UHGV virus genome: UHGV-0073881
Direction: 5' to 3' (one strand)
Length of the DNA: 64,000 bases
From: a virus
Shown here: positions 4,697 through 53,517 of the stretch, in pieces
Position numbering within the stretch: the first letter of the stretch is position 1
Layout: the number at the start of each line of letters is the position of its first letter
Notes under the pieces: generated by a model
What the model saw: only the letters and a program-made list of their open reading frames with translations
Database searches by the model: none
What the model was told of the DNA's origin: nothing
Translations under genes and position numbers: made by a program

Positions 4697-5270
4697 GAAA
4701 GGGATTGTCAGAACTTTGGTTGATGTTATTGGTCACCGTCTAGCACGAGATAAGAATAACAGACCAAACGTTATCAGGGCATACCCATCTGACAACTCAA
4801 ATGATAAAGGTCTAAAACCTGACCAGCCATTTATTACAGTTTACTGTCAAGATGCTACAACGCCTTATGGGTGGGTACTTGATAAATTCGTGGAAGATGA
4901 TGTAGTTTGTTATAGAATTGCTTTTCAGATTCCAGTGTTAATTACTGTGAATGGTAAAGGTGCTCATAGTATTATGCTAGAGCTAAAACAGAGATTAGAG
5001 ATGAGTTCCACAAGGGATTTATTAGCTGAGGAAACAGGAGCATCTGTTCTTGATACCGGAGCTATCCCAAATGATTACACTTATCTTAATACAGACTTTG
5101 AAAATTCTGCACCTCTTGTTGTAACACTCGTAAAAAATTCAGTATTAAAAGATGAACGTGGAAGTATTATTGAACGTGTCATTGTTGATGGTGAGTTAGT
5201 TTATGAGGAAGGACAGGAGCCACCAGAATATACTATCCATCTAGATGTAGACTCCAAAGGGGTAAAATAA
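4671..5270 (+). CDS. hypothetical tail completion protein
   Basis: 199-aa ORF immediately upstream of the sheath gene. Confidence 0.4.
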   Translation: MQLETAELEKGIVRTLVDVIGHRLARDKNNRPNVIRAYPSDNSNDKGLKPDQPFITVYCQDATTPYGWVLDKFVEDDVVCYRIAFQIPVLITVNGKGAHSIMLELKQRLEMSSTRDLLAEETGASVLDTGAIPNDYTYLNTDFENSAPLVVTLVKNSVLKDERGSIIERVIVDGELVYEEGQEPPEYTIHLDVDSKGVK

Positions 5271-13201: not shown

Positions 13202-14670
13202 TGGCTGGATTAACTACAACTGGTTTGCAGACAAAAAGATATCAAGAAATCTTAGATGATATTAAAGAAAGACTATACAGAGATATTTCACCTAACCTTG
13301 ACGTATCTGAAGATAGCCAGCTTGGACTCTTCTTAGCTTCTGTTTGTAGAGCCTTGGCAGATGCACATGAAATCTTGTCAGAAATCTATGACGGTGGCAC
13401 TATTGACAAAGCTGAGGGATTTAGCCTTGATGATGTAACAGCACTGAATGCTGTATACAGATATGTTGCACAAGCTACGAGAGGTCAGGCTGAGTTTACT
13501 GGTGCATCCGGTTCTCCAGTTCCATCTACAACAAGGCTGAGAAGTACAGCAGGTAATATTTTCTACCCTGTATCAACATTTACGCTAACTCCGTCTTACT
13601 GCGTTGAAGCAAATTTGGAAGTTAACTCTTTACGTACTGACTCAAACTATGTTATTATTATTGATAACGTTGAATACTCATATCAACCAACAAGCTCAGA
13701 TACTGTTACAACACTTTTACAGCACTTAGCAGACTCTATCAATGGTGGTCTCGTTGCTAAAGCGGAAGTTGTTAATGATGGTTCTGTGTTGAAAATCTAT
13801 AAAGACACTGGAGATATTGTTGCCAGAACAAACCCTATGGTTGTAACTGCAACAACCTTCTTGACATTCACAAAGATTACTACAATTAATGATGTAGTGG
13901 CTGAACAGACAGGTGCTTTACCAACTCTGGCAGGAACACTTATTGAGATTGAAACAACTGTAGATGGTCTTGACGGTGTATTTAACAGGTATGACCTAGT
14001 AACTGGACGTGATGAAGAGTCTGATACAGAACTACGTCAGCGTTACCTAGAATCTTTAGCAGTTACTGGTGTGGGTACTTTAGATGCTATCGTTGCTGCT
14101 GTCAAGAGAGTTCAAGGTGTATCTGATGCTTCTGGTGTAGAAAATGACACAGAGACTACTTCTTCTGATGAGTTACCTCCAAAGTCTTTCAAGATTGTCG
14201 TTGTAGGTGGTCAGAACGACAACGTAGCACAGGCTATCTGGGATGCTAAACCTGCTGGTATTAGAGCATACGGCTCTATCTTTGGAACAGCTTATGACTT
14301 AGGTGACTTACCACATAATGTCTACTTTAGCAGACCAATGCCTAAGTATGTTTTTGTCAAGGTAAAATACTCAATGTACGATGAAGAATCTTTGAACATC
14401 CCTGAACAGGATATCCATGACAGAATTGTGCAGGGTATTAACGCTTATGGTAGAACCTTGAAAGTTGGTAATGACGTTATCCCTAACAGAATCTATGGAT
14501 ATGTTTATGACGTTATCCAAGGTATTGAGATTAATGAAATCAAAGTAGCCTTGGCAAATAACCAATCAGTTCCTCCAGCAGATGACCAGTACACAACTGC
14601 AAGAATCACAGTTGATGGTGACCAGTATACCGTATGGGAAAGCAGTCAGTATACCATTACTAAGGAATAA
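13201..14670 (+). CDS. baseplate J-like protein
   Basis: 489-aa ORF in the J position of a P2/Mu-like baseplate operon. Confidence 0.5.
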   Translation: MAGLTTTGLQTKRYQEILDDIKERLYRDISPNLDVSEDSQLGLFLASVCRALADAHEILSEIYDGGTIDKAEGFSLDDVTALNAVYRYVAQATRGQAEFTGASGSPVPSTTRLRSTAGNIFYPVSTFTLTPSYCVEANLEVNSLRTDSNYVIIIDNVEYSYQPTSSDTVTTLLQHLADSINGGLVAKAEVVNDGSVLKIYKDTGDIVARTNPMVVTATTFLTFTKITTINDVVAEQTGALPTLAGTLIEIETTVDGLDGVFNRYDLVTGRDEESDTELRQRYLESLAVTGVGTLDAIVAAVKRVQGVSDASGVENDTETTSSDELPPKSFKIVVVGGQNDNVAQAIWDAKPAGIRAYGSIFGTAYDLGDLPHNVYFSRPMPKYVFVKVKYSMYDEESLNIPEQDIHDRIVQGINAYGRTLKVGNDVIPNRIYGYVYDVIQGIEINEIKVALANNQSVPPADDQYTTARITVDGDQYTVWESSQYTITKE

Positions 14671-14673
14671 TTA

Positions 14674-15531
14674 ATGTTACAAAAAATTGACAACATCTAT
14701 GAAAAGACGTTGGACGAGAGAACTGTAACACAATTCAAAGACAAGTTTATTTACACAAGTCTATTGAAATCTATCACAGATGAGTTACAATTGATTGAGG
14801 ATATTAGTTTTCAGTTATACACTGAACGTAATATTCGTACAGGTGTAGGCCAGCAATTAGATAACATTGGGGCTTTGATTAAAGTCCCTAGACCTATTGG
14901 TGCTACAGATGAAGCTTACAGAGCTATCCTATATATCCAAATCTTTCTAAGACGTTCTGACACAACTCCAACGTTTCTTCAAAGAGCTATTATGACTCTT
15001 TACAATGCTACGTTCAGTCAAATCTTTGAGCATATTACTCCTATGACTGGCGGTATTGTTATAAGAGTTAATACCAGAAACAACGTTGTAGATACAGCAT
15101 ACACACTTTCAAAGATTGCTGCAACAACTATTGGTTCAGCAGTTATCTTGAGAGATGTGACTTTGAATGGTACTGCATGGACACCTGTAGAGGTTGCTGA
15201 CTCAGCTTTAGCAATCACTGATGACAAGAATAGCTGGTTCGTTACAGATAACAACAAAGGTCTTGTAACAAACAACACAGGTGGCTCTCTTGAGGCAAAC
15301 TTACTAGGAAGTTTAGCAGATGCTGGTGTAAAGGATGGCTACATGAGGGTTGATAAAACTGGTGGGAGTACCAGTAAAGACTACTTCAAAGTCTCTAAGA
15401 CAGCAAACGGTAATGACTATTTCATTGCTGGTAAAGAAACAGTCGCAGGTGGTGATTACGGTGTAATGGCTGAGGTTGCACAAATCATCAAAGGCAGAAA
15501 AGATAAATCCCAACAAGAAGGAAGTTCATAA
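14674..15531 (+). CDS. baseplate wedge / tail fibre attachment protein (gpI-like)
   Basis: 285-aa ORF following the J-like gene. Confidence 0.4.
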
Positions 15532-15833
15532 TGGCAGATTTAAATTGGGCTACAGGCTCAGTAGATGCTGATGGTAACCAGCTTAAAGTATTACCACCAC
15601 CAGAAGTTCAAGCAACTGGCCTTTTAAGGGGTGAACCTATGGGCCGTCAGTGGTTTAACTATATCTTAAACTACCTTCTGGTAAAAGTAAACGGGACGGT
15701 AGGTGAAGTCAAATCTTTTGCCACTGAACAACCTGATTTAGTTGAAAGTGGTTGGACGCTTATTAAAACAGAAACAGGTACTGCAACAACATCGACAACA
15801 AACCTATACACATATGAATATGTAGGGAGCTAA
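15531..15833 (+). CDS. hypothetical tail protein
   Basis: 100-aa ORF coupled to neighbours, directly upstream of the fibre genes. Confidence 0.4.
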
Positions 15834-20130: not shown

Positions 20131-21030
20131 CTACTTACCAACTGACAAGGGAGCTTCAATCTTCCCTGCATGACGGTAATCTTTCAAGCCACCTATGAAG
20201 TCACTTGCAGTTTTATGTTTAATGTCTTCAAGGCATTTCAAGTCTTGAACAATCTCAAATTTAGGTGCTGGAAACTCTTCATTACCTAGCAACTGGAAAA
20301 CCTGAGACATATGGTTTTGATAAATTTGAGTATCCCCAAAAGTGCCTACCAAGTATCTTGGAGTGTACCCTGTCATCTTACACAGAACATGCAAAATAAA
20401 ACCATATGATGCAATATTAAATGGTAAACCTAAGAAGGTGTCACATGACCTTTGATACCATTTCAAATCCATCTCTCCAGTATTCGAAACATAAATCTGG
20501 AAAAGAACATGACAAGGTGCTAATGCCATAGAACCACTTGCAATATCTGCTGCATTCCAAGCATTAACCAGCATGTAACGGTCTGTAGGAGACTTTTTAA
20601 CCTTATCAATAAGAATGTCTAACTGGTCAACTACAACGCCACCATGACCTTCTGAAGCCCTCCACTGGACACCATAGATTCGTCCACCTGCATCTTCCAG
20701 CCAATCCTTCTCAGTCGCATAAGAAGTCTTCAACCAACGCTTGAAGTCATCTGTCCAGATAGTCCAACGTTCTCCGTCATTCTCTCCCCAAGTTCTGTAT
20801 CGAAGAGTTCCAAGGGTGTTTTCACCATTTAAGAACCAAAGTGCTTCCCCAATTACCTGACGCATGAAGGTTTGCTTTGAAGTGATTAATGGGAATCCAG
20901 AACGCATATCAAAGCGAAACTCTGGTGGAGCAAAGGTGGTAACAACTTTACCAGTTCGTGTATCACGCTGCTCACCGACTGTTAAAACATGGTTCAAAAT
21001 ATTCTTGTAACTTACATCTGCTTGTGACAT
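20131..21030 (-). CDS. thyA: thymidylate synthase
   Basis: 299 aa with ThyA hallmarks including the active-site PCH context (ALAPCHVLFQ) and conserved C-terminal region. Confidence 0.9.
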   Translation of the reverse strand: MSQADVSYKNILNHVLTVGEQRDTRTGKVVTTFAPPEFRFDMRSGFPLITSKQTFMRQVIGEALWFLNGENTLGTLRYRTWGENDGERWTIWTDDFKRWLKTSYATEKDWLEDAGGRIYGVQWRASEGHGGVVVDQLDILIDKVKKSPTDRYMLVNAWNAADIASGSMALAPCHVLFQIYVSNTGEMDLKWYQRSCDTFLGLPFNIASYGFILHVLCKMTGYTPRYLVGTFGDTQIYQNHMSQVFQLLGNEEFPAPKFEIVQDLKCLEDIKHKTASDFIGGLKDYRHAGKIEAPLSVGK

Positions 21031-21031
21031 A

Positions 21032-21577
21032 TCAGAAACGTCCTCTTACTTGTGGAACATAAATGTTGAATACAACGCTGTCATCCTTCGATGGTTTTGA
21101 CTGTATTCTAGCAAAAGTTGACTCATCATACAAGTACTCAAAGAAACCCTTGTAAGGAAGCTTCACAGTTGCTTCTTCAGTCACTTCACGAATATATGTT
21201 TGACAAACTGCATCTGCATATGGTAAAGCTTGGATTAGAATGCTTGCCCCGCCAATTATACAAACATCTTGCTCGATACTATTATCAAGATGTTTTAAGA
21301 ATGCCCCAAAAGCGTCTGAATGAACCTTAGCAAACATTACATCTTCTCTACCAAAATCTATACCTTCATACGGTAATGAGTTTGTCAGAACAATATTATC
21401 ACGGTCTGGTAAAGGTTTGCTTCCAAGACTCTTGAAAGTGTCATTACCCATAACTACCAATTGACCTGTGGTAATCTTTTTGAACTCTTGCATGTCTTGC
21501 TTATTACGAGGCCAAGGCATACCAGAAGGACAACCAAACTCCCCGTTAAGACCATTTGCAAAAACTAATTTAATCAT
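21032..21577 (-). CDS. folA: dihydrofolate reductase
   Basis: 181 aa; DHFR-like N-terminus (MPWPRNKQD, VVMGNDTFKSLG, PLPDRDNIVLT); adjacent to the thymidylate synthase gene. Confidence 0.85.
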   Translation of the reverse strand: MIKLVFANGLNGEFGCPSGMPWPRNKQDMQEFKKITTGQLVVMGNDTFKSLGSKPLPDRDNIVLTNSLPYEGIDFGREDVMFAKVHSDAFGAFLKHLDNSIEQDVCIIGGASILIQALPYADAVCQTYIREVTEEATVKLPYKGFFEYLYDESTFARIQSKPSKDDSVVFNIYVPQVRGRF

Positions 21578-21846
21578 TGTGTGAACCCCTTTACAATAAA
21601 CCAGTTAGCAATATTTTTAACAAATTTAACTGGGTGAAATACTAAATGTGGTTGTGGTTCATAACCACCATAAGCCCAGAAAGAGATAATGTTATTACAA
21701 TCCGTGCAACGTGTATACTCTTCGGCTACATTACCTGCGACAATCTCTGTAATCTCACCTTGGAAATTTGTACCTCCACAATGTGGGCATTTTAAAGGTT
21801 CGCCGTCTTGACTGTAACAGTGTTCAAACTTCTCAAACAGTTTCAT
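21574..21846 (-). CDS. hypothetical zinc-ribbon protein
   Basis: 90 aa with CPHCGG ... CTDCN cysteine pairs. Confidence 0.45.
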   Translation of the reverse strand: MKLFEKFEHCYSQDGEPLKCPHCGGTNFQGEITEIVAGNVAEEYTRCTDCNNIISFWAYGGYEPQPHLVFHPVKFVKNIANWFIVKGFTQ

Positions 21847-22364
21847 TTTTTGTTTACCTTAAAAGTTTGCTGGATATCAACTACGAAGTCTAAATCATCA
21901 CACTCACTTGATAGGAAATCTTCAAAGTGTTTTGGTATAAAACTTAGGAAATCCATAGAACCCAAATCACCTACTAAGCGAATGTAATAATCGTTCTCGC
22001 AAGTTGCATTAACTAAATGCCGTCCTATGTATGGCTTCACAATATCTCTTATATCATCTACGAAGATATTCAAAAGAGCTTTGAAGGATTTAGGGTACTG
22101 AGTTCCTCCATACAAGTCAATGCTTGCTTCAGTCTTTACAGAGATTGATTTAGCATCTCTGAACTCAGTTGAGAAAAGATGAGCAGGGAGAATACAAAGT
22201 GAATCTCCAGTATCTTCATCAACCAACTCAATAGTTCCTGCATCATAGTTTGTTTCAATCAGTATTTCACCCTCTTGTATCTTTCTTGCTTCAAGGTGAG
22301 TTGTGATAATACCTCTCAGTATTGATGCTTCAGGGAGAAATAAGTTGATTCCTATTTTCTGCAT
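21843..22364 (-). CDS. hypothetical protein
   Basis: 173-aa ORF in the co-oriented early cluster. Confidence 0.45.
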   Translation of the reverse strand: MQKIGINLFLPEASILRGIITTHLEARKIQEGEILIETNYDAGTIELVDEDTGDSLCILPAHLFSTEFRDAKSISVKTEASIDLYGGTQYPKSFKALLNIFVDDIRDIVKPYIGRHLVNATCENDYYIRLVGDLGSMDFLSFIPKHFEDFLSSECDDLDFVVDIQQTFKVNKK

Positions 22365-22365
22365 A

Positions 22366-22869
22366 TCAAACCTCTACAAATGTTTGCTTCATGTTATCGT
22401 ATGAATAGAATTTTATACACTTTTGAGTATTCCAGTCAACCTTTTCTTTGTAAGAAAGACCTTTTGAGATTCGCTTACCAAGAGTCTGATAGACGATATC
22501 TCGAAGCTTTCTGTACTCAGGTGCATCATCTAAAGCTTTTGCATCTGTAGTTGCCTTGTAACCGTCTATAGAACGTTGATTCCAATCCTGCTGAGTTGGT
22601 GACATTGGCTTGTAAAGCTGTGGCAGATGATTGTAAAGCATGTTACCTTCTTCTAAAGCAAGCTTCAGTTGGTGAAGGTACTCATTCAAACGACCATCCT
22701 CTTCAAGCCACTCATACAGAGACTGTAAAGCCCCTAGATTGTTGTTGTAATGGGCAGCACGTTTTACAGAACCCTTGTCAGTACGATAAGGTGACTTTGG
22801 AAGACTCAGTATCTGACCTTTCAAAACGTTGAATCCAAAGACCAAATCTATTTTCATGGGAAGAGACAT
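22366..22869 (-). CDS. hypothetical protein
   Basis: 167-aa ORF in the co-oriented early cluster. Confidence 0.45.
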   Translation of the reverse strand: MSLPMKIDLVFGFNVLKGQILSLPKSPYRTDKGSVKRAAHYNNNLGALQSLYEWLEEDGRLNEYLHQLKLALEEGNMLYNHLPQLYKPMSPTQQDWNQRSIDGYKATTDAKALDDAPEYRKLRDIVYQTLGKRISKGLSYKEKVDWNTQKCIKFYSYDNMKQTFVEV

Positions 22870-23213
22870 TTGATATCCTCATTTTTAAAAGTGAATGTTG
22901 TGTAGATAGTACCTTCAACATCTAACCAGATAGCAGTGGCATCCACACCATCAAGGTTATTGAAAAGTTCTTTGATGAACGAGTTACGAATATCCTTTGC
23001 ACAGGTTGTCTCAAGTTTAATGTTTGAGATTGCTGAACCAATTGCCATATAGCCTTTGACACGATTCTTCTCAGAATGCTTGATATCACCTTTCTGTAGT
23101 TTAGCAATCATCTCTACAAGAATCTCATGCCCCCATACCTTCTCAGCCTCTGTAGGCTTACTATAAAAACCAATTGCAAAGTTACCTTTAAAGATTGCAT
23201 TTTCACGTTTCAT
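22854..23213 (-). CDS. hypothetical protein
   Basis: 119-aa ORF in the co-oriented early cluster. Confidence 0.45.
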   Translation of the reverse strand: MKRENAIFKGNFAIGFYSKPTEAEKVWGHEILVEMIAKLQKGDIKHSEKNRVKGYMAIGSAISNIKLETTCAKDIRNSFIKELFNNLDGVDATAIWLDVEGTIYTTFTFKNEDIKCLFP

Positions 23214-23214
23214 A

Positions 23215-23514
23215 CTAATCTACCTTACTTAAGTTGAAGTTTAAGCCAAGTTTATCACAAACACTAATCATGTAGTCAAGAGATACTTTCCCACTACCAT
23301 TCAGGATGTTTGAGACTCTGGCTTGAGATATTTCACAAATCTTTGCTACCTGAATCTGTGAAAGGTTGTTTCTTTTCATGTGTATGTTTAACTTTTTAGA
23401 GATGTAAAACTTCATCTCATCAACATCCATTCCTGCTATATAAGCTTCCATTTCGGCCTCTCTATCTGCCTCCCAATCATCTTGAGGTGCATAAGGGTCA
23501 AAGATACTATTCAT
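23215..23514 (-). CDS. helix-turn-helix DNA-binding protein (XRE-like)
   Basis: 99 aa; C-terminal half matches an HTH pattern (LSQIQVAKICEISQARVSNILNG). Confidence 0.55.
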   Translation of the reverse strand: MNSIFDPYAPQDDWEADREAEMEAYIAGMDVDEMKFYISKKLNIHMKRNNLSQIQVAKICEISQARVSNILNGSGKVSLDYMISVCDKLGLNFNLSKVD

Positions 23515-23710
23515 CTTTCTTTCTCCGTTTACGAGAAGTGTCGATTAACGAATCAAGGTTAGTAGCTCTAACTTGTTCACGAGTACCATTGATGTAGTTA
23601 TCAAGGGACTCTACAACAGTGTTGAAGTCTTTAGCCCAAACTCTGTAAATAACTACGCCGTCATCGTCAATAACTTCACCATAGTCTACTCTACAGATAT
23701 TCTTCTTCAT
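23507..23710 (-). CDS. hypothetical protein
   Basis: 67-aa ORF coupled to neighbours. Confidence 0.4.
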   Translation of the reverse strand: MKKNICRVDYGEVIDDDGVVIYRVWAKDFNTVVESLDNYINGTREQVRATNLDSLIDTSRKRRKKDE

Positions 23711-24087
23711 TGTGGAAGACCCATGCAGTGACGGTTAATGATAAAGTGTTCAACACCGTCTAAAGCACCCTGAGAAACGTGCTCTTTCACAACTTCAATT
23801 TCAGTAATCTGCTCAGGGTTAAGAACGTCAATGTTTTCTGTAACCATCATATCAGAAACATCAAGGTAGTACTGCCCCATTGTGTGGTAATTGAAATCAA
23901 TTATCTTGTCAGTTAATTCAGAAACAGTGTCTTGAGAAATCGGCTTTGTCAATTCTCCAGCTTTAGAAACAACCTTTTGAGCAACCTGACAAGCTTCTAC
24001 TCTGACGTTGTTGTAATCAATCTTTGGCATATCTGCATAAGCATTGAAGCTTAGTGCGGCAAAGATACATAGTACAATCTTTTTCAT
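23707..24087 (-). CDS. secreted/periplasmic hypothetical protein
   Basis: 126 aa with N-terminal signal peptide MKKIVLCIFAALSFNAYA (A-x-A cleavage-like site). Confidence 0.5.
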   Translation of the reverse strand: MKKIVLCIFAALSFNAYADMPKIDYNNVRVEACQVAQKVVSKAGELTKPISQDTVSELTDKIIDFNYHTMGQYYLDVSDMMVTENIDVLNPEQITEIEVVKEHVSQGALDGVEHFIINRHCMGLPQ

Positions 24088-24179
24088 AACTTACTCCTAT
24101 ATAATATTTTGTATACCTACGAGTATAAAAATAAGCTATAACACCTGACTTGTCAACAGATTTTATAGCTTATTTGGCA

Positions 24180-24450
24180 GATTTTTTATAAAGCTACTGC
24201 CATCCTTCCATACCTTACCACACAAGACCAAACCATGCCGTACTCCACTTCACAGGACCAAGCATCACTTAAAAATCCTCTTAGAAGACTCTTAAGTGAT
24301 GCAATCGAATTTTAATGTAGCTCCGATTAACTACCCATACCTGACCGAACCTTACCGAGCCTTACCAGACACTACAGAACAGGACCGCACCGCACCTCAT
24401 TAAAAGACCCTCTTTAAAGACCTTTTAATAAGGAGCCTCCGAAGAGGCTA
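24180..24450. repeat. non-coding modular repeat region A
   Basis: no ORF of 60 aa or more; + strand strongly G-poor; shares modules with region B: 11-bp inverted repeat 24262-24302, covarying hairpin 24303-24340, box 24393-24430, short direct repeats CCTTACC and ACCGC; hairpin AGCCTC-CGAA-GAGGCT at 24431-24446. Confidence 0.6.
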
Positions 24451-24460
24451 CCTAGTCAAC

Positions 24461-24901
24461 TTAGAAGGGTTTTCTACGTTGCTTGTTAATATTAGCTTTC
24501 ATAGCAGCTAAGTGGTTTTGCTGTTCAATCAGTCGTGAACGTTCTTGATGGCTAAGTGTCATAGTGTTCACATTCTCAATTGCTTGAGTGGCTTGTTTTA
24601 AAGCACGACCAATCTTACCAGACATTTTACGTTTTGCAATAGTTGCTTGATGTTTTGGCTCAACTACTCGATAACCGACACCCATTGAAGCAACCAGATA
24701 AATCTTCTCTTCTTTAAGAAGCTTCTCAATAAACTTCTCAAGTCGATTTAGGCGTGTAAGTGCGTAAGCCTTCATTTCATCTTCGTACTTAACAATGTCA
24801 CCTTGATAAGTTGGCTTCACAATACCTAAGAAGGTGTCCATCTCAGAATGTGATACGGTGTCACCGTAACTAAACTTTGCTGCTAATGCTTTTGTATTCA
24901 T
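24461..24901 (-). CDS. hypothetical protein (cassette gene 2)
   Basis: 146 aa with basic C-terminus; flanked by the repeat regions. Confidence 0.5.
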   Translation of the reverse strand: MNTKALAAKFSYGDTVSHSEMDTFLGIVKPTYQGDIVKYEDEMKAYALTRLNRLEKFIEKLLKEEKIYLVASMGVGYRVVEPKHQATIAKRKMSGKIGRALKQATQAIENVNTMTLSHQERSRLIEQQNHLAAMKANINKQRRKPF

Positions 24902-24903
24902 AA

Positions 24904-25509
<606 letters not shown>

Positions 25510-25559
25510 TTAGTTGATTGTTAAGTTGTTTGTAAAGAACCCTCAACAGAAGACTCTTT

Positions 25560-25840
25560 AGAAACTTGGTAGATTTTTAACGTGGCTACTACCATCCACC
25601 CATATCATACCAAACCTGACCAAATCTTACCGCACCCAACATCGCCTAACCTTACCACACCTCATTAAAAGACCCTGTTTAAAGACCTTTTAAAAAGGTA
25701 AGTCTCATTTTAATGTAGCTGAGACTAACTACCCATACTAAACCTCACCGCACCTCACCGAGCCGCGCATTACCAAACCAGACCAAACCTTGCCTCACAT
25801 CACTTAAAAATCCTCTTAGAAGACTCTTAAGTGATGCTGG
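25560..25840. repeat. non-coding modular repeat region B
   Basis: G-poor + strand; same modules as region A in a different order: box 25658-25698, covarying hairpin 25701-25740, inverted repeat 25798-25837, direct repeats CCTCACCG and ACCAAACC. Confidence 0.6.
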
Positions 25841-25900
25841 TGAGTACCCGTTGGTTTATGCTGCTTAGTATACTCACCAAATTTTCTAGGTCAACAACTT

Positions 25901-27004
25901 TTATTCATAGTCTCGAATAACTAACCCAACAGGGAACTGTAAAGACCCCTTGCGAGTCATCTTCTGGAACTGAACCGTTAAAGGTTTCCCGATAAACTCT
26001 TCAGGGTGTTCAGCAAGATACTGTTTCTTCTCATGGGTAGTTTTCCATGAAACATCTACAAAGACATTTGGAAGTGTCTCTACAACAAACTTACCATGAC
26101 CCCGCTTATCGGTCTTCACACCAGTAATTTTAAACTCCTCTGTGTGCATCTTCTTATGTTTAATCAGGAAGTATGAACGGTGACCACACTCATAGAAGGA
26201 CTCTGGAGAGATTGAGCGGTACATTGCACCTTCAAACTTAGCTTCAACCCACTTATCATGAGCTTCATCAAACTCTTCCCAAGAATTTACACGACGAGAT
26301 TTAACAGGGACAACTCTACAGCCATCTCTAAAGTCATTCAATGGTGAAGTCTCAATAATACTTCTACGCTCAGGCCATGTCTTAGTGCTGTCACAGATAT
26401 CATACCAGTAAAACTTGAGTAAATGTCGGTCAGGATTGTCTTCATTTTTAATCATGGAGACAATATCTTCTAAGTCCAACCCATGAGCATAGATTTCACC
26501 ATCAAATTCATCAACGTCTTTATGGAGCCTCAACATTGCCATAATGTCAGGTATTAGCTCAGTAGGAATTTTATAAATAGTGTTCTCACGAGAATATGCT
26601 GTAAATACACTGCCAATACTTAAGTGTCTTGAAATCCTACAACGTACACCATCCAGTTTTGGTTGAGCATCAGCAGGAAATTTCAGATACTTTGCATGAC
26701 TAACCTTTGCAGCATCATGAGCAAGCTGTACACCTACCTTCTCAGTATTCTGTGCAGACTCTTTTGTGTAAGCGTAACCTTTACGGTCTACTTGTTTCTT
26801 GTACTTAGCAGAAACTTCAAAGAGAGCTTGCTGTTCAGCATTACGCTCATTCTTTTTACCGATGTTCTTAGGCTCTGCTGTGTACTCTTCAAACATCATC
26901 TTGCCATTTTCTTTACCGTAGGTTGTAACCACCTTATCACCTACAGCAACACACGACCAAACGTTAAAAGAGCCATCTTTATTTTGTTTGTACAGAATTG
27001 TCAT
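25901..27004 (-). CDS. ATP-dependent DNA ligase
   Basis: 367 aa with adenylation motif KxDGxR (PKLDGVRC) and a ligase-like downstream region. Confidence 0.85.
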   Translation of the reverse strand: MTILYKQNKDGSFNVWSCVAVGDKVVTTYGKENGKMMFEEYTAEPKNIGKKNERNAEQQALFEVSAKYKKQVDRKGYAYTKESAQNTEKVGVQLAHDAAKVSHAKYLKFPADAQPKLDGVRCRISRHLSIGSVFTAYSRENTIYKIPTELIPDIMAMLRLHKDVDEFDGEIYAHGLDLEDIVSMIKNEDNPDRHLLKFYWYDICDSTKTWPERRSIIETSPLNDFRDGCRVVPVKSRRVNSWEEFDEAHDKWVEAKFEGAMYRSISPESFYECGHRSYFLIKHKKMHTEEFKITGVKTDKRGHGKFVVETLPNVFVDVSWKTTHEKKQYLAEHPEEFIGKPLTVQFQKMTRKGSLQFPVGLVIRDYE

Positions 27005-27207
27005 TTTCTCTTACCACCAATCTCTACGTCGATAACTTGAGTGTCTCCACAAACATCAAACTTGTGAATGACATTTTCTACAGTGTAAGTCCAACCATCA
27101 ATCCTTACCCACTCACCTTCTCGTGGTACGATAGGGTTACGTTGGGCAACTGTAGTAGTTGAGTGTATAACGTCATATAGGTGAATAAAGTTTACCAGTA
27201 CTTGCAT
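27001..27207 (-). CDS. hypothetical protein
   Basis: track ORF 27001..27258 overlaps the upstream lipoprotein gene by 50 nt; internal Met at 27207 starts right after that stop codon. Confidence 0.4.
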   Translation of the reverse strand: MQVLVNFIHLYDVIHSTTTVAQRNPIVPREGEWVRIDGWTYTVENVIHKFDVCGDTQVIDVEIGGKRK

Positions 27208-27208
27208 C

Positions 27209-27454
27209 TTAATATCCTTCGTCAATAACGGTGATGTGTTGAGTGCTTGACTTACCATACCTGTAAGAAGTTGTTGTCTGTGAATTTGGGCAACGGACTA
27301 CTATTAAGTCATATTTAAATGTTGACCAATTAAGTTTGTATATTGAACAATCTCTCATCTCTGGAGGTAACTCATAGCTACTGTCTTGTTTGTCATAACT
27401 TGGGTTACAGCCAGTTAGAAAAAGCACTCCAAGTGCAATGATTGTTTTCCACAT
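27209..27454 (-). CDS. small lipoprotein
   Basis: 81 aa; signal peptide plus lipobox-like LTGC (MWKTIIALGVLFLTGC); three further Cys. Confidence 0.55.
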   Translation of the reverse strand: MWKTIIALGVLFLTGCNPSYDKQDSSYELPPEMRDCSIYKLNWSTFKYDLIVVRCPNSQTTTSYRYGKSSTQHITVIDEGY

Positions 27455-27675
27455 AGTTGATTTCCTTTTTCACAGTTTTCTTCGTAACCTTCTTGGACGG
27501 TCTTGTAAAGTTCCTTGAAAGTTTCTTCTTTCACTGGCTCTACAGACTTTGTTTTACACAAGTCCAAGTACCATTGATAGTCTAACCCACGACACCATGC
27601 TTCAGACACAAAAGAAATCTGAGGGTTTATGTTTCGGATTATTGCTAAACCAGCTTCTTCTTTACTGCTCATCAA
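27415..27675 (-). CDS. hypothetical protein
   Basis: 86-aa ORF with several cysteines. Confidence 0.4.
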   Translation of the reverse strand: MMSSKEEAGLAIIRNINPQISFVSEAWCRGLDYQWYLDLCKTKSVEPVKEETFKELYKTVQEGYEENCEKGNQLCGKQSLHLECFF

Positions 27676-27801
27676 ACTTAACCTCTCTAAAAGTTCTTAA
27701 GTAATATAGTTTGTAGTAAACTATTTCGCAACTACGAACGTTTGTTTTCAAAAGGTTCCAATCAAAACCTTCACCCATACTTCCCCAGATGCTGTAGAGC
27801 T

Positions 27802-28005
27802 TCACTGTAAAATGCTCCATCCAGTTTTCTGCCAATCACACCCACGATACCATGTAGCCATTGGGTAACCCATTTCACAGACAATCTTCCCATCTTTCAT
27901 TTCGAAGAACTCATCAGATGTGAAATTTTCATTACGTACTTTGTGACCACTCTTCATGGCTTCAATAGCTTCTTCATAAGTCATTTTGATTTCTCCAATA
28001 CTCAA
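27802..28005 (-). CDS. hypothetical small phage protein
   Basis: 67-aa ORF; pattern EAIEAMKSGHKVR resembles a small protein family common in phages (from memory, unverified). Confidence 0.4.
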   Translation of the reverse strand: MSIGEIKMTYEEAIEAMKSGHKVRNENFTSDEFFEMKDGKIVCEMGYPMATWYRGCDWQKTGWSILQ

Positions 28006-28214
28006 AAGTTAATGTCAATGCGTTCACCCTTAAGGACTCCAGTGTGGTCTTTTGCAATCTTACCATCAACAATAAGGATATGTGCAAACCTTAAAGAGTC
28101 ACGATTAAAACCTTTTACGAACTTACTAGGCATCACTACAATAAGCATCTCCTGAATCAACTCTGGAGTATAGCAATTGTCGTGAAGTTGTTGGATAACG
28201 TCTGAAAGTGTCAT
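28002..28214 (-). CDS. hypothetical protein
   Basis: 70-aa ORF coupled to upstream ORF. Confidence 0.4.
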   Translation of the reverse strand: MTLSDVIQQLHDNCYTPELIQEMLIVVMPSKFVKGFNRDSLRFAHILIVDGKIAKDHTGVLKGERIDINF

Positions 28215-28265
28215 AAATCCTCCTATACAAGATATAGTATAAGGTACTCTTCCATGAGCACCTTG

Positions 28266-28778
28266 TCAACTTAGTTTTGCAAACTCTCCGTGGAGTTTCA
28301 TAGCAGCTTCACAGTAAGCTTCATGGGCTTCTTCAGGGGTGTCATACATCCCAAGATGATAATTCTTACCTTGTAAACGAATCATTGCCCTAAACCTTTT
28401 CCCTATCTTCTGTACACCTTTTGGTAAACCTGATATGGACTTTCTAGACCGATTGCAAGAGTTTTGTGAAGCCGTACAAACCCTCAAATTCAAATACCTA
28501 TTATCCCAACCATCACAATTCTTGTGGTCAACCTGTAAGGTTTTATCAGGTAGGTATCCATCCATATACAAGATAACTAAACGATTTGCTTGGTAACTCC
28601 TTCCATCAATCAGCAATTGGACAGACTTGTGACCATCAGTGTTTGTTCTGTAGTTTCCAGCCCTCTTACCTCCAAATCTAGAGTTAAAGTTTGCATTACC
28701 TTCTCTAAATTTCCAAGTAAAGACCCCTGTATCGGGGTCGTACTCTAAAAGCTCCTTTAAACGAATTTCTGTAATCAT
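28266..28778 (-). CDS. HNH homing endonuclease with AP2-like DNA-binding domain
   Basis: HNH motif (VDHKNCDGWDNRYLNLRVCTASQN) plus AP2-like C-terminus (GVQKIGKRFRAMIRLQGKNYHLGMYDTPEEAHEAY); paralogue of the ORF at 38356; start chosen at internal Met aligning with that paralogue (track start 28817 overlaps the polymerase). Confidence 0.65.
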   Translation of the reverse strand: MITEIRLKELLEYDPDTGVFTWKFREGNANFNSRFGGKRAGNYRTNTDGHKSVQLLIDGRSYQANRLVILYMDGYLPDKTLQVDHKNCDGWDNRYLNLRVCTASQNSCNRSRKSISGLPKGVQKIGKRFRAMIRLQGKNYHLGMYDTPEEAHEAYCEAAMKLHGEFAKLS

Positions 28779-28788
28779 TTCAACACCA

Positions 28789-31494
28789 TCAATGTACTTC
28801 CAACCAGCTCTTACCAACCTTACCAGTACCTGTAACCATAGTTTCTTTTCTTAGACCAAGGTTTTTAGAAGCCTGCCCGTACATCCAGTCAGTGATAGCT
28901 TTAACCTCTTGAGTCATACTTTCTGGACATTCCCAACTATTTTCATCGTGATATGCCAGAAGAAGTCTAGCTCCAATAGCTGGCTTACGTCCATTCAGCT
29001 TCATCAACCCTTCATCATAGGCTCTACGACATGCAAGGTTAATTGCTTCATTCTGTACTTGACTTTCTGAACCCATCAAAAGGTAATTTAACAGCTTGTG
29101 TGGAGACTTACACCATAACCAAGCTCCAGCAACCTTTACAAAACCCCCTTTAGAGATTGCAGCAGTCTTACCAAAGACCTCTTCAAGAGCCTTCTTAGTC
29201 GCTTTAAAGTCAGCTTCTAAGTTATCAATCAGTTTCTTAATCTTCGGCAAACGAACGAAGTAAGTCTGTTTAGTCAATGCACCCTCCTGAGTAGTTGCTG
29301 CTTTAATGGTCTTAGCAAACTTCTCATCCCCTGCACCAAACAGCAGTGCATAGATGCCATTCTTAGCTTTCTTACGACCTTTACTGATTTCGTGAAGAAG
29401 ATTTTCATCCTGAGTCATACGACAAGTCAAGATATCCTGCTCATCATTCAAGCTGAAGTAGATACTGTTCAGTGTGTGAGCATCAGTGCCTGAGTAAACT
29501 ACGTACAAGTCGTTTTCAGAGTCATAACGCAGATACTTGTCAACCTCTGGATTCAGGTATTCGTCAAAGTGTTTGCAGTAGTAGCGACCATCTTCTTGAC
29601 GAACAAATTCAATCTCTTCTTTACCTTCGGTTACCGCTTTGGTGAACTCTTTATCACCCATAAAGTTACACAGTAAAACAAGCTGTGCAGAGTTCATATC
29701 CACAGAGACTACGTTGGTTCCCTTCTCACAAATCCAAACTGCCCTCATTGGTTCACCATAAACAGCAGCACCGGAAGGTACGTTTACAATACCATACTGT
29801 GTCATACGTCCAGTGGATGTACCAAACACCATTGCACCAGCACTTAAACGACCATCTGGACGAATCTGATTCAACCAACCTTTCTCATCATCCTTTGAGT
29901 TCTCAATAGTTCTGCGTCGGTGCATCAAAGTATAGTACTTCGCAATCTTCTGCCCAAGTTCACCTTCGATAGTGTCATAAGAAGATTCAGTCAGTTTTGG
30001 TGAAGTACGAATCAAGCAAGGTTCAAGAACATCTGTGTATTTCTTCACAGACCAATTATGCTCGATGTACTGTACCCCTTCATGCTCAACGTAGTTTAAA
30101 CCACAACGTTCAACCATTTCATCCCACTTAGGATGTTTACGAATCATCTTCTTATTATCTTTGAAGCGACAAACCTTAACAGGACGACCATCTGAGTCTT
30201 TCTTGTAGTTCCAATCATCAGGAATCCAACCAACAGATTTCAGATACTCTTTAACTACTGCAACCTGAGTCATGCGTGAAACTTCAAACTCAATCGGTGT
30301 ATATGGTGCATCAATCAAACCCGTGTAACGACTTGACTCAAGTTCAAAGTGATTAACAACATGATTGTTGTAGTACTTGACAATCTTAACAGTTTTAACT
30401 GGCTTCCAATCTTTGCACTTCTTGTCAACCTTCGCATTTAGCTCATTACATACTGCACGAGCATCTTTCATTGCCACGAAACCTTCTTTGTACTCTTCTC
30501 CGGTTACCGTGTTAGTTGGTGTGTAGCAGTTACGTTTCTCTACGCTGAAAATCTTGGTAGTTGGTTTACCAAATGGCTTAATAGGATAACTTTGCATTTC
30601 CCCATTACGAACCTGCTGACGATACTTTGTCTTAGGATACTTGGTAATACGTTTCAAACCATCTGCTTCACCAAAAGTTTCAACATACTCATTCCAAGCT
30701 TTTGCAAATTCTTCACCAGTAACTTTCCCTTTTGTCTTGATAGTTGGTGGTAAGAATGGCTCAACCTCTGAAGCAAGGTCAGCAGTCATCTTATCAAGTT
30801 CTTTAACACAACTCTTCATCATGTTAATGTCAGCTTTCCAACCATTGATAGCTTGCTGGCTCATCCAGAAAGATGTTTCTTTAGCTCGCATGTAGGTTTC
30901 GTAGGTATCCACACCACACTTCTTCAGCTTCACATACTCATTATCAAGAGCACGTTTAGTTTTGGCGTTGATTCGAATATCTTCAACAACACGAGTTAAG
31001 ATTTCAGCGTTCCAAACTCCCCACTCTTCAATCTCAGGCTTACGGACACCAACACGAGCACCCCATGCAGCCAAACCATGAGAACCCTTGTAACCTTTCG
31101 GTGTAGGTCTATCCATCCACTGAACACGAGATTGGATAAGTGAATCTTGGAAGAAATTACTCCAAGGCTTACATTTAGGGTTATCAAAGTTCCACAGGTC
31201 AGGTGCAATGTGGTTGAACACCCACCAGTCATAACCAAGACCGTTGTGAATGCAAAGACGTTTCGCCTTTAAAGCAAACTCAACACCCTCTCTTAAGCCA
31301 CCCTTGATATACTTGGTGTACTTGTGACCAAGAATAGGCTCATCAGTGAATACCCACACAGGTGGTTCATCACTGTCATCTTTGTAATCTGCAAAAGCCA
31401 TTACGTGAGCTTTAGTGAACTCAAGCAGCAATCCGTCAGTTTCTGTATCGCCTACCAGATGCAAATTTTTAAAGTCTACGTTTTCCATTTTCAC
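28789..31494 (-). CDS. DNA polymerase, family A, with 3'-5' exonuclease domain
   Basis: 901 aa; Exo I-like DTETDGL; motif B-like KNGIYALLFGAG; motif C HDE (LAYHDENSWE). Confidence 0.9.
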   Translation of the reverse strand: MKMENVDFKNLHLVGDTETDGLLLEFTKAHVMAFADYKDDSDEPPVWVFTDEPILGHKYTKYIKGGLREGVEFALKAKRLCIHNGLGYDWWVFNHIAPDLWNFDNPKCKPWSNFFQDSLIQSRVQWMDRPTPKGYKGSHGLAAWGARVGVRKPEIEEWGVWNAEILTRVVEDIRINAKTKRALDNEYVKLKKCGVDTYETYMRAKETSFWMSQQAINGWKADINMMKSCVKELDKMTADLASEVEPFLPPTIKTKGKVTGEEFAKAWNEYVETFGEADGLKRITKYPKTKYRQQVRNGEMQSYPIKPFGKPTTKIFSVEKRNCYTPTNTVTGEEYKEGFVAMKDARAVCNELNAKVDKKCKDWKPVKTVKIVKYYNNHVVNHFELESSRYTGLIDAPYTPIEFEVSRMTQVAVVKEYLKSVGWIPDDWNYKKDSDGRPVKVCRFKDNKKMIRKHPKWDEMVERCGLNYVEHEGVQYIEHNWSVKKYTDVLEPCLIRTSPKLTESSYDTIEGELGQKIAKYYTLMHRRRTIENSKDDEKGWLNQIRPDGRLSAGAMVFGTSTGRMTQYGIVNVPSGAAVYGEPMRAVWICEKGTNVVSVDMNSAQLVLLCNFMGDKEFTKAVTEGKEEIEFVRQEDGRYYCKHFDEYLNPEVDKYLRYDSENDLYVVYSGTDAHTLNSIYFSLNDEQDILTCRMTQDENLLHEISKGRKKAKNGIYALLFGAGDEKFAKTIKAATTQEGALTKQTYFVRLPKIKKLIDNLEADFKATKKALEEVFGKTAAISKGGFVKVAGAWLWCKSPHKLLNYLLMGSESQVQNEAINLACRRAYDEGLMKLNGRKPAIGARLLLAYHDENSWECPESMTQEVKAITDWMYGQASKNLGLRKETMVTGTGKVGKSWLEVH

Positions 31495-31744
31495 TCCCTC
31501 TCAAACATATGACTCCATACCTTACTGCAAAACGACACAAAAAGCAAGTTGACAAATAACTTGACAGGGTGTTAGTCTTGTATGCAGTGGGTTTTAACTT
31601 AAAAGACTCCCTTTACAGATTAACTATACAGATTCTTTAAAACCCTTAAAAGATTTTAATAGCTTTTAAAAAGCTTTAAAGTATTACGTATAGAATACGT
31701 AAAGAAAGAGATTAAGACTTAATAGAAACTATAAAGAGGCTGCC
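31495..31744. promoter_or_regulatory. divergent intergenic control region
   Basis: 250-bp AT-rich gap between the - strand polymerase gene and + strand genes; tandem TTGACA hexamers at 31549 and 31561; perfect inverted repeat TACGTAT-aga-ATACGTA at 31686-31702. Confidence 0.4.
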
Positions 31745-32167
31745 ATGCAGAGAATGTTTGTTCACCCTGACGTAGCAAATTTCCTAAAAGCTTTGGAGAA
31801 GTTAGAAGAACTTGACATAGCTGCTCAGAAGGAATATGCTTACCATCATCGTCGAATGGTTGATGTTCAACACGAAATAGAACTTTCAGAAGGTTACGAC
31901 GAAGATTTGAAATGCTCTGTTTTCGAGCATATGAAAGAGATTGCTTCTGATAGGCGTAAAGCAAAAGATACATGTTTTTTGATAGATGCCTTAAAAAAGA
32001 AGTTGCAAAGTGGAACAGACTTGTGTAGTCTAGCAACACTTCTTCAGGATGTTGAGAGTTCTTGGGACAGACATTACTTCCCAAGGTCTGAAAAGACACT
32101 TGACTTCTCTTCACCGGAAGGATTAAAATTATCACGACTTACATTAAACAAAATGAGAGAGAAATAA
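31745..32167 (+). CDS. hypothetical protein
   Basis: 140-aa ORF; + strand chosen over the overlapping antisense ORF 31719..32135 because it is co-oriented and coupled with downstream genes. Confidence 0.45.
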   Translation: MQRMFVHPDVANFLKALEKLEELDIAAQKEYAYHHRRMVDVQHEIELSEGYDEDLKCSVFEHMKEIASDRRKAKDTCFLIDALKKKLQSGTDLCSLATLLQDVESSWDRHYFPRSEKTLDFSSPEGLKLSRLTLNKMREK

Positions 32168-32168
32168 T

Positions 32169-32969
32169 ATGAAAACTGTAAATGAAATGCTGGCAGAAAA
32201 GAACATCAACGAACAATTCCTGTTAACTACTGTGGAAAGCCTTGCTGTAATTTTCCGTAGCAATACGTTCACTCGTGGCTTTATGCCAGAATCACTTCAA
32301 GTTACAGATATTGACAGTGACGAATCTTTCCGCTCAACTGTAGAGTTACTTACCAGCAATCGTAAAATTGCTCTGACCTCTATCGTTGTTGGTGTTGACT
32401 CTCTGGCTAAATTCCTGTTTGAGAACATGCAGAGTGGTGATTACTCTAGCATGGATGAGCAAAGCATTAATATGCTGCTTAATGAGATGACTGAACAGCA
32501 AATGGTCATGGGTATTGTTGGTGGAGTATCAAGTGTCATGGCTATGCTGGAAAAGCGTATGGAAGATAAATCTTCACGCTATGACAAACTTGATTGGGGT
32601 TTCAATGTAATCTCTGAACGTGCTAAAGCGCTGGCTATTGAAACTTACCAGAAACTGGAAGACTTGACTAAACAGGACGCAGATATTAAGCTTGACGACA
32701 TTCAGGTTATGGTTACTGCTCTGACACCTGCAATCATGACTATCATGAATATTCACGCAATTCTTGAAGTTGCAGATTTGCTGAAGTCTCCACCTTCTTT
32801 CATTGAAGAAATCAGTGGTGGTGCAAGTGCATCTGCTTTGCAAGATGTTCTTATGCAGACCAACGTAGCAATTGTACGTGAGAAGATTGCCATTAACTTT
32901 GGCGATGAATTTTTGCAGCAGATTGAAGCAATGGCTGAAAAGAACGGTGAAGATATTACAATTCACTAA
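32169..32969 (+). CDS. hypothetical protein
   Basis: 266-aa ORF followed by a terminator. Confidence 0.5.
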   Translation: MKTVNEMLAEKNINEQFLLTTVESLAVIFRSNTFTRGFMPESLQVTDIDSDESFRSTVELLTSNRKIALTSIVVGVDSLAKFLFENMQSGDYSSMDEQSINMLLNEMTEQQMVMGIVGGVSSVMAMLEKRMEDKSSRYDKLDWGFNVISERAKALAIETYQKLEDLTKQDADIKLDDIQVMVTALTPAIMTIMNIHAILEVADLLKSPPSFIEEISGGASASALQDVLMQTNVAIVREKIAINFGDEFLQQIEAMAEKNGEDITIH

Positions 32970-44619: not shown

Positions 44620-44861
44620 TGACTTACATAATTTATTCTAAAGATGGTTGCCCTCAGTGTGTAACTGCGAAGAACTTTGCTCAGGCTCGTGGTGTAGACC
44701 ACATGGTACGTATGTTAGGCACTGATTATGAGCTTCAAGATTTGATGGATATCGCAAAGATGCCAGTTCGTCAAATGCCTTTCATCATGAAGACGGAAGG
44801 CAATGATTTAACCCCTGTTGGTACTTTACAGAATTTTATGGCTGAGGTGAACAATGCTTGA
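44619..44861 (+). CDS. glutaredoxin-like protein
   Basis: 80 aa with redox motif CPQC near the N-terminus; coupled to nrdB. Confidence 0.7.
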   Translation: MTYIIYSKDGCPQCVTAKNFAQARGVDHMVRMLGTDYELQDLMDIAKMPVRQMPFIMKTEGNDLTPVGTLQNFMAEVNNA

Positions 44862-45054
44862 GAAAATTATCAAAGGTTTTAAAGAAGATGCTGTCATGCT
44901 CCTGATTATCATCTTCGCAATGAATATGTTTATTGACTTCAAACAAGGTTTTATGTTTGGGATAATGCTAGTATGGTTAATCATTGAGATACTAGATATC
45001 CACCTTGGATTGAGTGATAAGGTTGAAAAGATATTTAAAAAGATTTTTAAATAA
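44854..45054 (+). CDS. small membrane protein
   Basis: 66 aa with two hydrophobic segments. Confidence 0.4.
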   Translation: MLEKIIKGFKEDAVMLLIIIFAMNMFIDFKQGFMFGIMLVWLIIEILDIHLGLSDKVEKIFKKIFK

Positions 45055-45064
45055 TTTATAATAA

Positions 45065-45087
45065 GGGTCTCTTCGGAGACCTTTTTT
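45065..45087 (+). terminator. rho-independent terminator
   Basis: GGGTCTC-TTCG-GAGACC followed by TTTTTT; near-identical to the terminator at 40958. Confidence 0.65.
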
Positions 45088-45102
45088 ATATCGGGAGTAG
45101 AA

Positions 45103-47256: not shown

Positions 47257-47267
47257 GTAGTTGACAA

Positions 47268-47306
47268 GGTAGTGTAGGTCTTGATAGGCTTGCACTACCT
47301 TTTTTA
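47268..47306 (+). terminator. stem-loop terminator candidate
   Basis: GGTAGTG ... CACTACC (7-bp stem, long loop) followed by TTTTTT. Confidence 0.45.
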
Positions 47307-47411
47307 TTGGATGTTAGATATGACAGAGAACATCATTGGTTTATTCATAGGTTCTACCTTACTAGGGTTCTTTCTAGGACTCCTTTATTGTGACTTAAGA
47401 GGAAAGTTAAA

Positions 47412-53487: not shown

Positions 53488-53517
53488 TTGACATGGCTAT
53501 ACAGTTTTCTGTATAGT
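53488..53517 (+). promoter_or_regulatory. sigma70-like promoter (TTGACA-N18-TATAGT) with overlapping palindrome
   Basis: consensus -35; perfect 8-bp inverted repeat CTATACAG-tttt-CTGTATAG spans the spacer and -10; about 35 nt upstream of rIIA. Confidence 0.5.

Follow-up and report, generated by a model that had tools for sequence, protein, structure and literature searches.

Gene context of the divergent junction

The stretch of DNA analysed here (the window) comprises 64,000 nucleotides (nt) of the virus genome UHGV-0073881, and the element under study is the noncoding gap that separates its DNA polymerase gene from a divergently oriented block of replication genes. Judged by its sequence, the window is from a Felix O1-like coliphage. 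A 4-kb query around the gap matched 266 phage records, the best of which was Escherichia phage pEC-M719-6WT.1 (97.4% identity, and 97-99% for the window), and the other records, mostly 80-90% identical to the query, were Felix O1-like members of the subfamily Ounavirinae. When 361 bases centred on the gap were used, 259 of the same records were matched, mostly at 80-90% identity. Phages of the Felix O1-like group serve in Salmonella typing, biocontrol and therapy.

Structural genes on the + strand extend to 20094, a - strand block covers 20131-31488 and a second + strand block begins at 31745; the gap is therefore the sole divergent junction within the window. It spans 31489-31744 (256 nt). 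An earlier note, made from the letters of the window, had set its limits at 31495-31744, of which the right edge is correct and the left edge is moved to 31489 by the polymerase start codon at 31488. The same note had described it as the only large gap between the - and + blocks. It is indeed the only divergent junction, but other large gaps of 373, 394 and 483 nt are present.

To the left of the gap lies a family A DNA polymerase gene (28789-31488, - strand; ATG at 31488-31486, translation VKMENVDF...), which is annotated as DNA polymerase in pEC-M719 and relatives and is preceded by the Shine-Dalgarno sequence AGGGAG (the reverse complement of 31494-31499). To the right, a homolog of FelixO1p180 encoding 140 amino acids (aa) is the first gene of the rightward replication block (+ strand, ATG at 31745, to 32167), with a Shine-Dalgarno sequence AAGAGG at 31734-31739, and it is followed by a dNMP kinase and a T7-type primase-helicase. 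The 140-aa protein belongs to phrog_4039, of unknown function. No Pfam or PDB match was found for it, and its structural model, a helical hairpin of moderate confidence, gave no significant fold match. The features described below suggest that the gap is probably the divergent transcription control region of these replication genes, read by the host sigma-70 RNA polymerase.

Conservation of the gap

The gap was examined in an alignment of 25 distinct sequences covering about 3.4 kb around it, in which invariant columns were compared by site class. For the polymerase gene, the script output carried a frame offset (ATG assumed at 31490), and the least conserved class is the true third position (ATG at 31488). 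Third codon positions were invariant in 27% of cases in the polymerase gene, 28% in the 140-aa gene and 7% in the next gene. The corresponding fraction was 66% for the whole gap, 80% for 31539-31592 and 84% for 31623-31683; the segment 31504-31538, which holds the spacer of the leftward promoter described below, gave 23%. Invariance in the gap is thus far above that of third positions, and most of the gap is therefore under purifying selection. The evidence that the elements of the gap matter is mainly comparative, not statistical.

Footprints and base-pairing counts within the gap were taken from 22 distinct relatives belonging to Felixounavirus, Mooglevirus and Suspvirus. A more distant relative, L202, was found in a Logan assembly through its 140-aa protein (58% protein identity). 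A comparison of the gap with the remainder of the window gave no repeat better than E = 0.76, and the gap therefore does not consist of a promoter module that recurs in this phage.

A probable rightward promoter with an extended -10 element

Both strands of the window were searched with a simple sigma-70 position weight matrix (PWM), about 640,000 positions being scored. By far the top site of the gap is a rightward candidate, designated P_R (31549-31578, + strand), whose score of 11.6 is tied 17th/18th overall. It consists of the -35 hexamer TTGACA (31549-31554, a six out of six match), an 18-nt spacer and the extended -10 element TGtTAGTCT (31570-31578, the hexamer TAGTCT starting at 31573). 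The T, the A and the final T of the -10 hexamer are present, together with TG at -15/-14, and P_R thus carries recognizable sigma-70 elements at both -35 and -10.

The -35 hexamer is invariant in the 22 relatives and in L202, and in TGnTAnTCT variation among the 22 is confined to the two n positions. The following 6-7 bases (discriminator, 31579-31585) are variable, and invariance resumes at the predicted +1, an A that in the relatives is located exactly 7 nt past the -10 (block AGTGGGTTTT, 31586-31595 in the window, where the predicted start is 31585/31586). L202 retains AAAGCAAGTTGACAA-nnnn-CTTGACAAGGTGTTAATCTTTGCGAAGTGGGTTT exactly. This conservation footprint fits an extended -10 promoter, as read from the aligned sequences. 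About ten other gaps of the window carry the same promoter type with a consensus -35. The distance from the -10 to the ATG is 167 nt for P_R versus 27-53 nt for most other strong promoters of the window, and the P_R leader (about 160 nt) is therefore unusually long.

In the GenBank record of phage vB_EcoM_ASO1B (MZ726792), two promoters are annotated in the homologous gap, namely TTGACA-16-GTTAAT and a leftward site. The annotated -10 at 16 nt was rejected, since other lineages have GTTAGT or GGTAGT in place of GTTAAT; the conservation pattern is better matched by TGnTAnTCT at 18 nt.

A P_R-like sequence, TTGACA-18-TGaTAGGCT, is found at 47261-47308, following a gene that ends at 47256. It sits within a terminator-like hairpin (AAGGTAGTG...CACTACCTT, then TTTTTT) and was not used as support for P_R. 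In pEC-M719, an open reading frame (ORF) of 43 aa was called by RAST inside the control region (5010-5141 of sequence L001, about 31509-31640 in the window). It spans the promoter core and is interrupted in the window by a TAA (ATAA versus ATCA in pEC-M719), and it was rejected as almost certainly not a gene.

A candidate back-to-back leftward promoter

On the - strand, TTGCTT-17-TAAGGT is the leftward candidate best supported by comparison (P_L, 31519-31547). Its putative -35 TTGCTT is located at 31547-31542 and its -10 TAAGGT at 31524-31519, separated by a 17-nt spacer, and the predicted start, at about 31512, would lie about 24 nt ahead of the polymerase ATG. P_L has a PWM score of 5.6, in the top 0.13% of positions; no leftward match in the gap is strong, the best score being 5.9. 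In Felixounavirus, Mooglevirus, Suspvirus and L202, the hexamers are kept as TTGCTT and TAnnGT and the 17-nt spacing is constant, while the spacer sequence is free. P_L and P_R point away from each other, a single base separating the two -35 hexamers. Two other leftward combinations, TTTAAA-16-TAAAAT and TTTGCA-16-TATGTT, were rejected because their spacing or hexamers are not conserved.

A comparable arrangement is present in Kolesnikvirus, whose polymerase N-terminus is about 60% identical. The divergent layout is the same, with an HNH gene inserted ahead of the polymerase gene. When these gaps were read by eye, back-to-back sigma-70-like promoters were seen, the leftward one (TTGACT-17-TAATAT) at the same place as P_L, as well as an additional proximal rightward promoter, TTGACT-18-TATGAT.

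The second TTGACA

The earlier note had reported two TTGACA hexamers 12 bp apart and read them as tandem -35 elements. Both hexamers are present at that distance, start to start (31549-31554 and 31561-31566), but the first alone has a usable -10, the second falling within the P_R spacer. As an independent -35 the second copy was rejected, no -10 being found at 16-19 nt (the best hexamers are TGCAGT in the window and GAAGTG in the relatives). TTGACA is about two-fold over-represented in the window (86 copies, 57 on the + and 29 on the - strand, against 40.8 +/- 6.7 in shuffles). Tandem pairs within 20 nt were found twice, compared with 0.22 in shuffles, an excess that is borderline once the enrichment of TTGACA is allowed for.

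The second TTGACA is invariant in all relatives including L202, despite lying in a normally free spacer, and 4 bases just ahead of it, between the two repeats, vary among relatives. It reads CTTGACAG, one mismatch away from the octamer CTTAACAG. It also overlaps a dyad, CAAGTT (31545-31550) and AACTTG (31558-31563), and this CAAGTT-N7-AACTTG arrangement across both -35 regions may be an operator. The pattern CAAGT-N-ACTTG showed no enrichment in the window.

An octamer array in the AT-rich leader

The earlier note had mentioned repeated CTTTAAAA-like words in an AT-rich tract, and these were found to exceed chance. The P_R leader contains 7-8 octamers of CTTWAMAG type on the + strand (31598-31725): O1 at 31598 (CTTAAAAG), O2 at 31611 (CTTTACAG), O3 at 31624 (CTATACAG), O4 at 31635 (CTTTAAAA), O5 at 31645 (CTTAAAAG), O6 at 31663 (CTTTTAAAAAG), O7 at 31674 (CTTTAAAG) and O8 at 31718 (CTTAATAG). 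O6 lies within the palindrome AGCTTTT-a-AAAAGCT (31661-31675). The spacing from O1 to O7 is 10-18 nt, and the 128 nt of the array hold five strict and eight loose octamers, roughly one per helical turn. There are 28 copies of the strict form, CTT[AT]A[ACT]AG, on the window's + strand, five of them in this array, and the gap is the sole place in the 64 kb with at least three strict octamers per 120 nt on that strand. None of 100 shuffles keeping local composition reached this density, so that the array resembles iterons in copy number (at least three), in its roughly helical spacing and in exceeding what composition yields. The leader also includes the stretch (31614-31736, 78-79% AT) whose duplex, at the 90-120 nt scale, has the lowest stability in the 64 kb.

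In L202 the octamers are kept position by position and the intervening bases are changed. Each Kolesnikvirus gap has four octamers, CTTAACAG, CTTTAAAG, CTTTA[CT]AG and CTTTAAAG. Thus, the octamers are retained as words in four genera and in L202, whereas the sequence that separates them differs. This suggests protein-binding sites and not folded RNA; the octamers are probably DNA-binding sites. Folding of the leader RNA was no more stable than that of shuffles (z = -0.5), as was that of the leftward RNA (z = +0.2), and an Rfam scan of 31300-31900 gave chance-level matches only, none better than E = 1.6. A 9-bp pairing in the leader between GGGTTTTAA and TTAAAACCC was rejected, being broken in Mooglevirus and ASO1B. 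No structured cis-regulatory RNA or small RNA was recognized, covariation being limited to the hairpin of 7-8 bp described in the next section.

Words akin to the octamers, and other noncoding features, were noticed elsewhere in the window. Two large noncoding gaps of the leftward block (24088-24460 and 25507-25900) have in common a 151-nt repeat (73% identity) and a 40-nt element that is the same in both, GCATCACTTAA...TTAAGTGATGC (24263-24302 and 25798-25837; 11-bp stem). They also hold ACC-rich periodic stretches, and words such as TTAAAAGACCCTCTTTAAAGACC that weakly resemble the leader octamers, and they seem to be positional counterparts of the annotated wV8 repeat DR_4. Weak similarities of 21-33 nt between the divergent gap and these repeat modules had p of about 0.01, uncorrected for 16 tests. 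At 53488-53517, a strong promoter-like TTGACA-18-TATAGT overlaps the perfect palindrome CTATACAG-tttt-CTGTATAG, whose left arm is the O3 word of 31624. The most AT-rich 40-mer of the window (90% AT) lies in the 483-nt gap 44620-45102, especially at 45025-45065; this gap also contains the palindrome TATTTAAAAAGATTTTTAAATA and, directly ahead of the gene at 45103, TTTAAA-17-TATAAT.

A lineage-specific hairpin

The perfect palindrome TACGTAT-aga-ATACGTA, which the earlier note had placed at 31686-31702, does exist but lies one base further left (31685-31701), and its arms extend to 8 bp (TTACGTAT-aga-ATACGTAA, 31684-31702, with a 3-nt centre). It occupies about +100 to +118 of the P_R leader; 42 nt separate its end from the ATG at 31745, and 31 nt from the Shine-Dalgarno sequence. 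The window contains one perfect palindrome of this size (8-bp arms, 3-nt loop), 1.3 being expected in local shuffles, and no second copy of its sequence was found in the 64 kb. None of the 22 distinct sequences has a broken pair among the 7 of the core, and no one-sided change occurs. Two core pairs have changed on both sides (AU<->UA, 12:10; CG<->UA, 18:4), and the loop is variable (AGA, AAC, TCT). A metagenome scan added 12 more genomes and no new variant of the hairpin; a loose pattern scan of viral contigs was discarded, almost all its matches being unrelated AT-rich DNA. The palindrome is kept in three genera and is absent from L202 and Kolesnikvirus, both of which keep the promoter core. 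L202 has a different palindrome nearer the gene (AATCTAT/ATAGATT).

The predicted RNA hairpin is weak (-3.5 to -5.8 kcal/mol). It was rejected as an intrinsic terminator, its stem being AT-rich and followed by AAGAAAG (+ strand) or TACTTTAA (- strand) and not by a T run; no terminator-like sites were found in 30500-32800.

The palindrome could instead be a DNA operator, as the earlier note had proposed, bound by a dimeric phage repressor that would block elongation from P_R or act on a weak proximal promoter. The phage does encode a Cro/C1-type helix-turn-helix (HTH) protein of XRE type (23215-23511; HTH_3, E = 1.9e-8), the one that the earlier note had named. The dyad is perfect, of typical operator size (17-19 bp, within the 14-20 bp of dimeric HTH sites) and conserved in three genera, a -10-like TAGAAT lies at its centre, and the good proximal promoter of Kolesnikvirus occupies the aligned position. 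However, both variable positions change on the two arms together, and the recognition helix ISQARVSNI is identical in lineages with differing palindromes; co-evolution with the HTH protein therefore does not explain the symmetric changes. In addition, the site lies about 100 nt past the predicted start, outside the promoter core. No acceptable -35 accompanies TAGAAT, no second operator is found in the window, the palindrome is missing in two distant lineages, one of them L202 with its promoter core, and a palindrome of such size is expected about once per window by chance. A role as operator is unlikely, and the element is favoured as a lineage-specific accessory element, most likely a small stem-loop of the leader RNA.

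It could also be argued that neither the palindrome nor the second TTGACA has a function of its own, both being by-products of an AT-rich, TTGACA-rich genome that persist because these phages have diverged little. Each feature taken alone is near chance expectation, the relatives have diverged by just 15-20% or so, and other gaps are similarly conserved. Yet columns of the core blocks are invariant three times as often as synonymous sites of that alignment, the second TTGACA has not changed even in L202, where the neighbouring protein is 58% identical, and pairing of the palindrome has survived two double changes. We regard an absence of function as very unlikely.

The gap as a possible origin of replication

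A further possibility is that the gap is a transcription-activated origin, in which P_R would transcribe into the easily melted AT-rich stretch and the T7-like replisome would start synthesis there. RNA or the opened duplex would start DNA synthesis, and the octamers and hairpin would help assembly. P_R does lie directly upstream of the least stable duplex, a promoter being thus followed by an unwinding stretch. The leader is unusually long, its iteron-like words recur at about one helical turn, and the gap sits between the polymerase and primase-helicase genes. The cumulative GC skew also has its minimum at the gap, but the flip coincides with the switch of coding strand. The three units had coding-strand GC skews of 0.00, 0.04 and 0.07 at 4-fold degenerate sites, and their intervals overlapped. 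Skew being close to zero at these sites, it does not support a replication signal, and the bulk skew comes from coding constraints; with this control, GC skew was removed as origin evidence. AT-rich leaders, moreover, are common in promoter regions.

A stronger candidate lies outside the window. About 4.5 kb past its right end, a gene-free field of 1.6 kb consists of CTTAACAG/CTAACAAG/CTTAACAA repeats with a spacing of about 11 nt (13,884-15,560 in wV8, L199; 68,720-70,356 in pEC-M719, or 4722-6356 of L203). It is located where the rightward and leftward early units converge, and in wV8 it holds 16 strict octamers on one strand. This iteron field is a better candidate for the origin than the gap, for which an origin function of the transcription-activated kind appears improbable.

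Because the field repeats are loosely akin to the gap octamers, one phage DNA-binding protein might recognize the gap octamers, possibly the second TTGACA (CTTGACAG), and the CTTAACAG/CTAACAAG field, and so couple transcription of the polymerase and primase-helicase operons to an iteron-type origin; or else the gap itself might be a promoter-plus-unwinding origin. Taken as a whole, this proposal is unlikely.

A probable divergent control region for the replication genes

Taken together, these features point to divergent transcription control by host sigma-70 RNA polymerase as the probable function of the gap. P_R would fire rightward from about 31585/31586, and P_L would fire leftward from about 31512 into the DNA polymerase gene. 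The second TTGACA, with the CAAGTT dyad across both -35 regions, would most likely be a site where a regulator can shut both promoters. The octamers in the AT-rich P_R leader of about 160 nt would most likely be recognized by a DNA-binding protein, of phage or host origin, with a modulating effect on elongation or initiation. The TACGTAT stem-loop in the leader RNA may serve mRNA stability, processing or protein binding, rather than being the main operator. The earlier note had seen here a switch point or operator for early/middle transcription. A divergent control region is supported by the conserved extended -10 of the first TTGACA, by the conserved back-to-back leftward promoter and by the assumption made for the homologous gap in the Felix O1 genome paper (PMC3185647); the tandem -35 elements and the palindrome as a switch are not.

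Several points weigh against this interpretation. The gap is 84% identical to that of wV8, as against 84% and 85% for two other large gaps and a median of 78% for genes, and a claim that its conservation is exceptional was toned down for this reason. The -10 of P_R matches the consensus at just 3/6 bases and depends on the TG motif, and no start-site mapping for the Felix O1-like group was found in the literature. P_L scores weakly, with hundreds of equal matches in the window. An alternative leftward -10, TATAGT (31628-31623), is also invariant in close relatives; it was rejected, its geometry being lost in L202. The octamers could act in RNA instead of DNA. As to the hairpin, its covariation comprises two evolutionary events, and template-switch correction of quasi-palindromes could mimic compensation without selection.

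In kind, the element is an ordinary divergent host-type promoter region, real and under selection. What is new lies in the details: conservation defines a promoter pair, the second TTGACA is invariant, the octamer array extends across the subfamily, and the hairpin is covarying and lineage-specific.

Additional features of the replication block

The surroundings of the polymerase gene are a hot spot of homing endonucleases, as seen in the window, in Kolesnikvirus and in L202. In the window, an HNH+AP2 ORF (28266-28817) overlaps the 3' end of the polymerase gene. In Kolesnikvirus, the HNH gene lies between the control region and the polymerase gene (about 968-1517 in L039-L041), and in L202 an Endonuclease_7 ORF (1001-1483) divides the polymerase into parts of 727 and 184 aa. 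In the middle of the rightward replication block, a 266-aa gene (32169-32969) carries the label 'minor tail protein' in PHROGs and in several records. Its product had no match in Pfam or PDB, and the label looks doubtful given the position of the gene.

Relation to known systems

The closest described system is the gene 96/97 region of phage Felix O1, a homologous locus that is about 83% identical and has the same flanking genes. In the Felix O1 genome paper (Whichard et al. 2010, PMC3185647), divergent promoters were assumed between genes 96 and 97, and no sigma-70-like sequence was found in this gap. ORF96 was transcribed within 5 min, and ORFs 96-99 were maximal at 25 min (PMC3185647). Divergent early transcription is assumed for that region. 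The octamer array and the covariation of the hairpin are not described for Felix O1 or ASO1B. The 2010 paper could not find the promoters it assumed in the gap; the conservation-defined promoter pair and the octamer array next to the replication genes are direct targets for start-site mapping, reporter work and phage engineering.

The arrangement also recalls lambda PR/PRM with OR, where divergent promoters likewise start from adjacent -35 regions and a dyad overlaps the -35 elements. In contrast to lambda, the present phage is virulent and has a single candidate dyad in place of three graded operators. The hairpin is comparable to the translational operators of T4 gene 43 and gene 32 and to 5' stabiliser hairpins, in being a short AU-rich stem-loop of a leader that is kept by compensatory change. 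Unlike the T4 operators, it stands 31 nt upstream of the Shine-Dalgarno sequence with no overlap, and it is not at the predicted 5' end of the RNA.

In iteron plasmids, the initiator recognizes direct repeats at the origin as well as related inverted repeats at the promoter of its own gene. Here too, related 8-mers form a large direct-repeat field, located outside the window, and a smaller, partly palindromic set next to the promoter of the replication genes; the two sets resemble each other loosely (CTTAACAG versus CTTWAAAG). Finally, T4 oriF and oriG and the primary origin of T7 consist of a promoter plus a downstream AT-rich unwinding element. The gap shares with them a promoter followed by the most easily melted stretch, as well as T7-like replication proteins. 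It differs from them in having no skew signal at neutral sites, a promoter of host-polymerase type and a separate iteron field.

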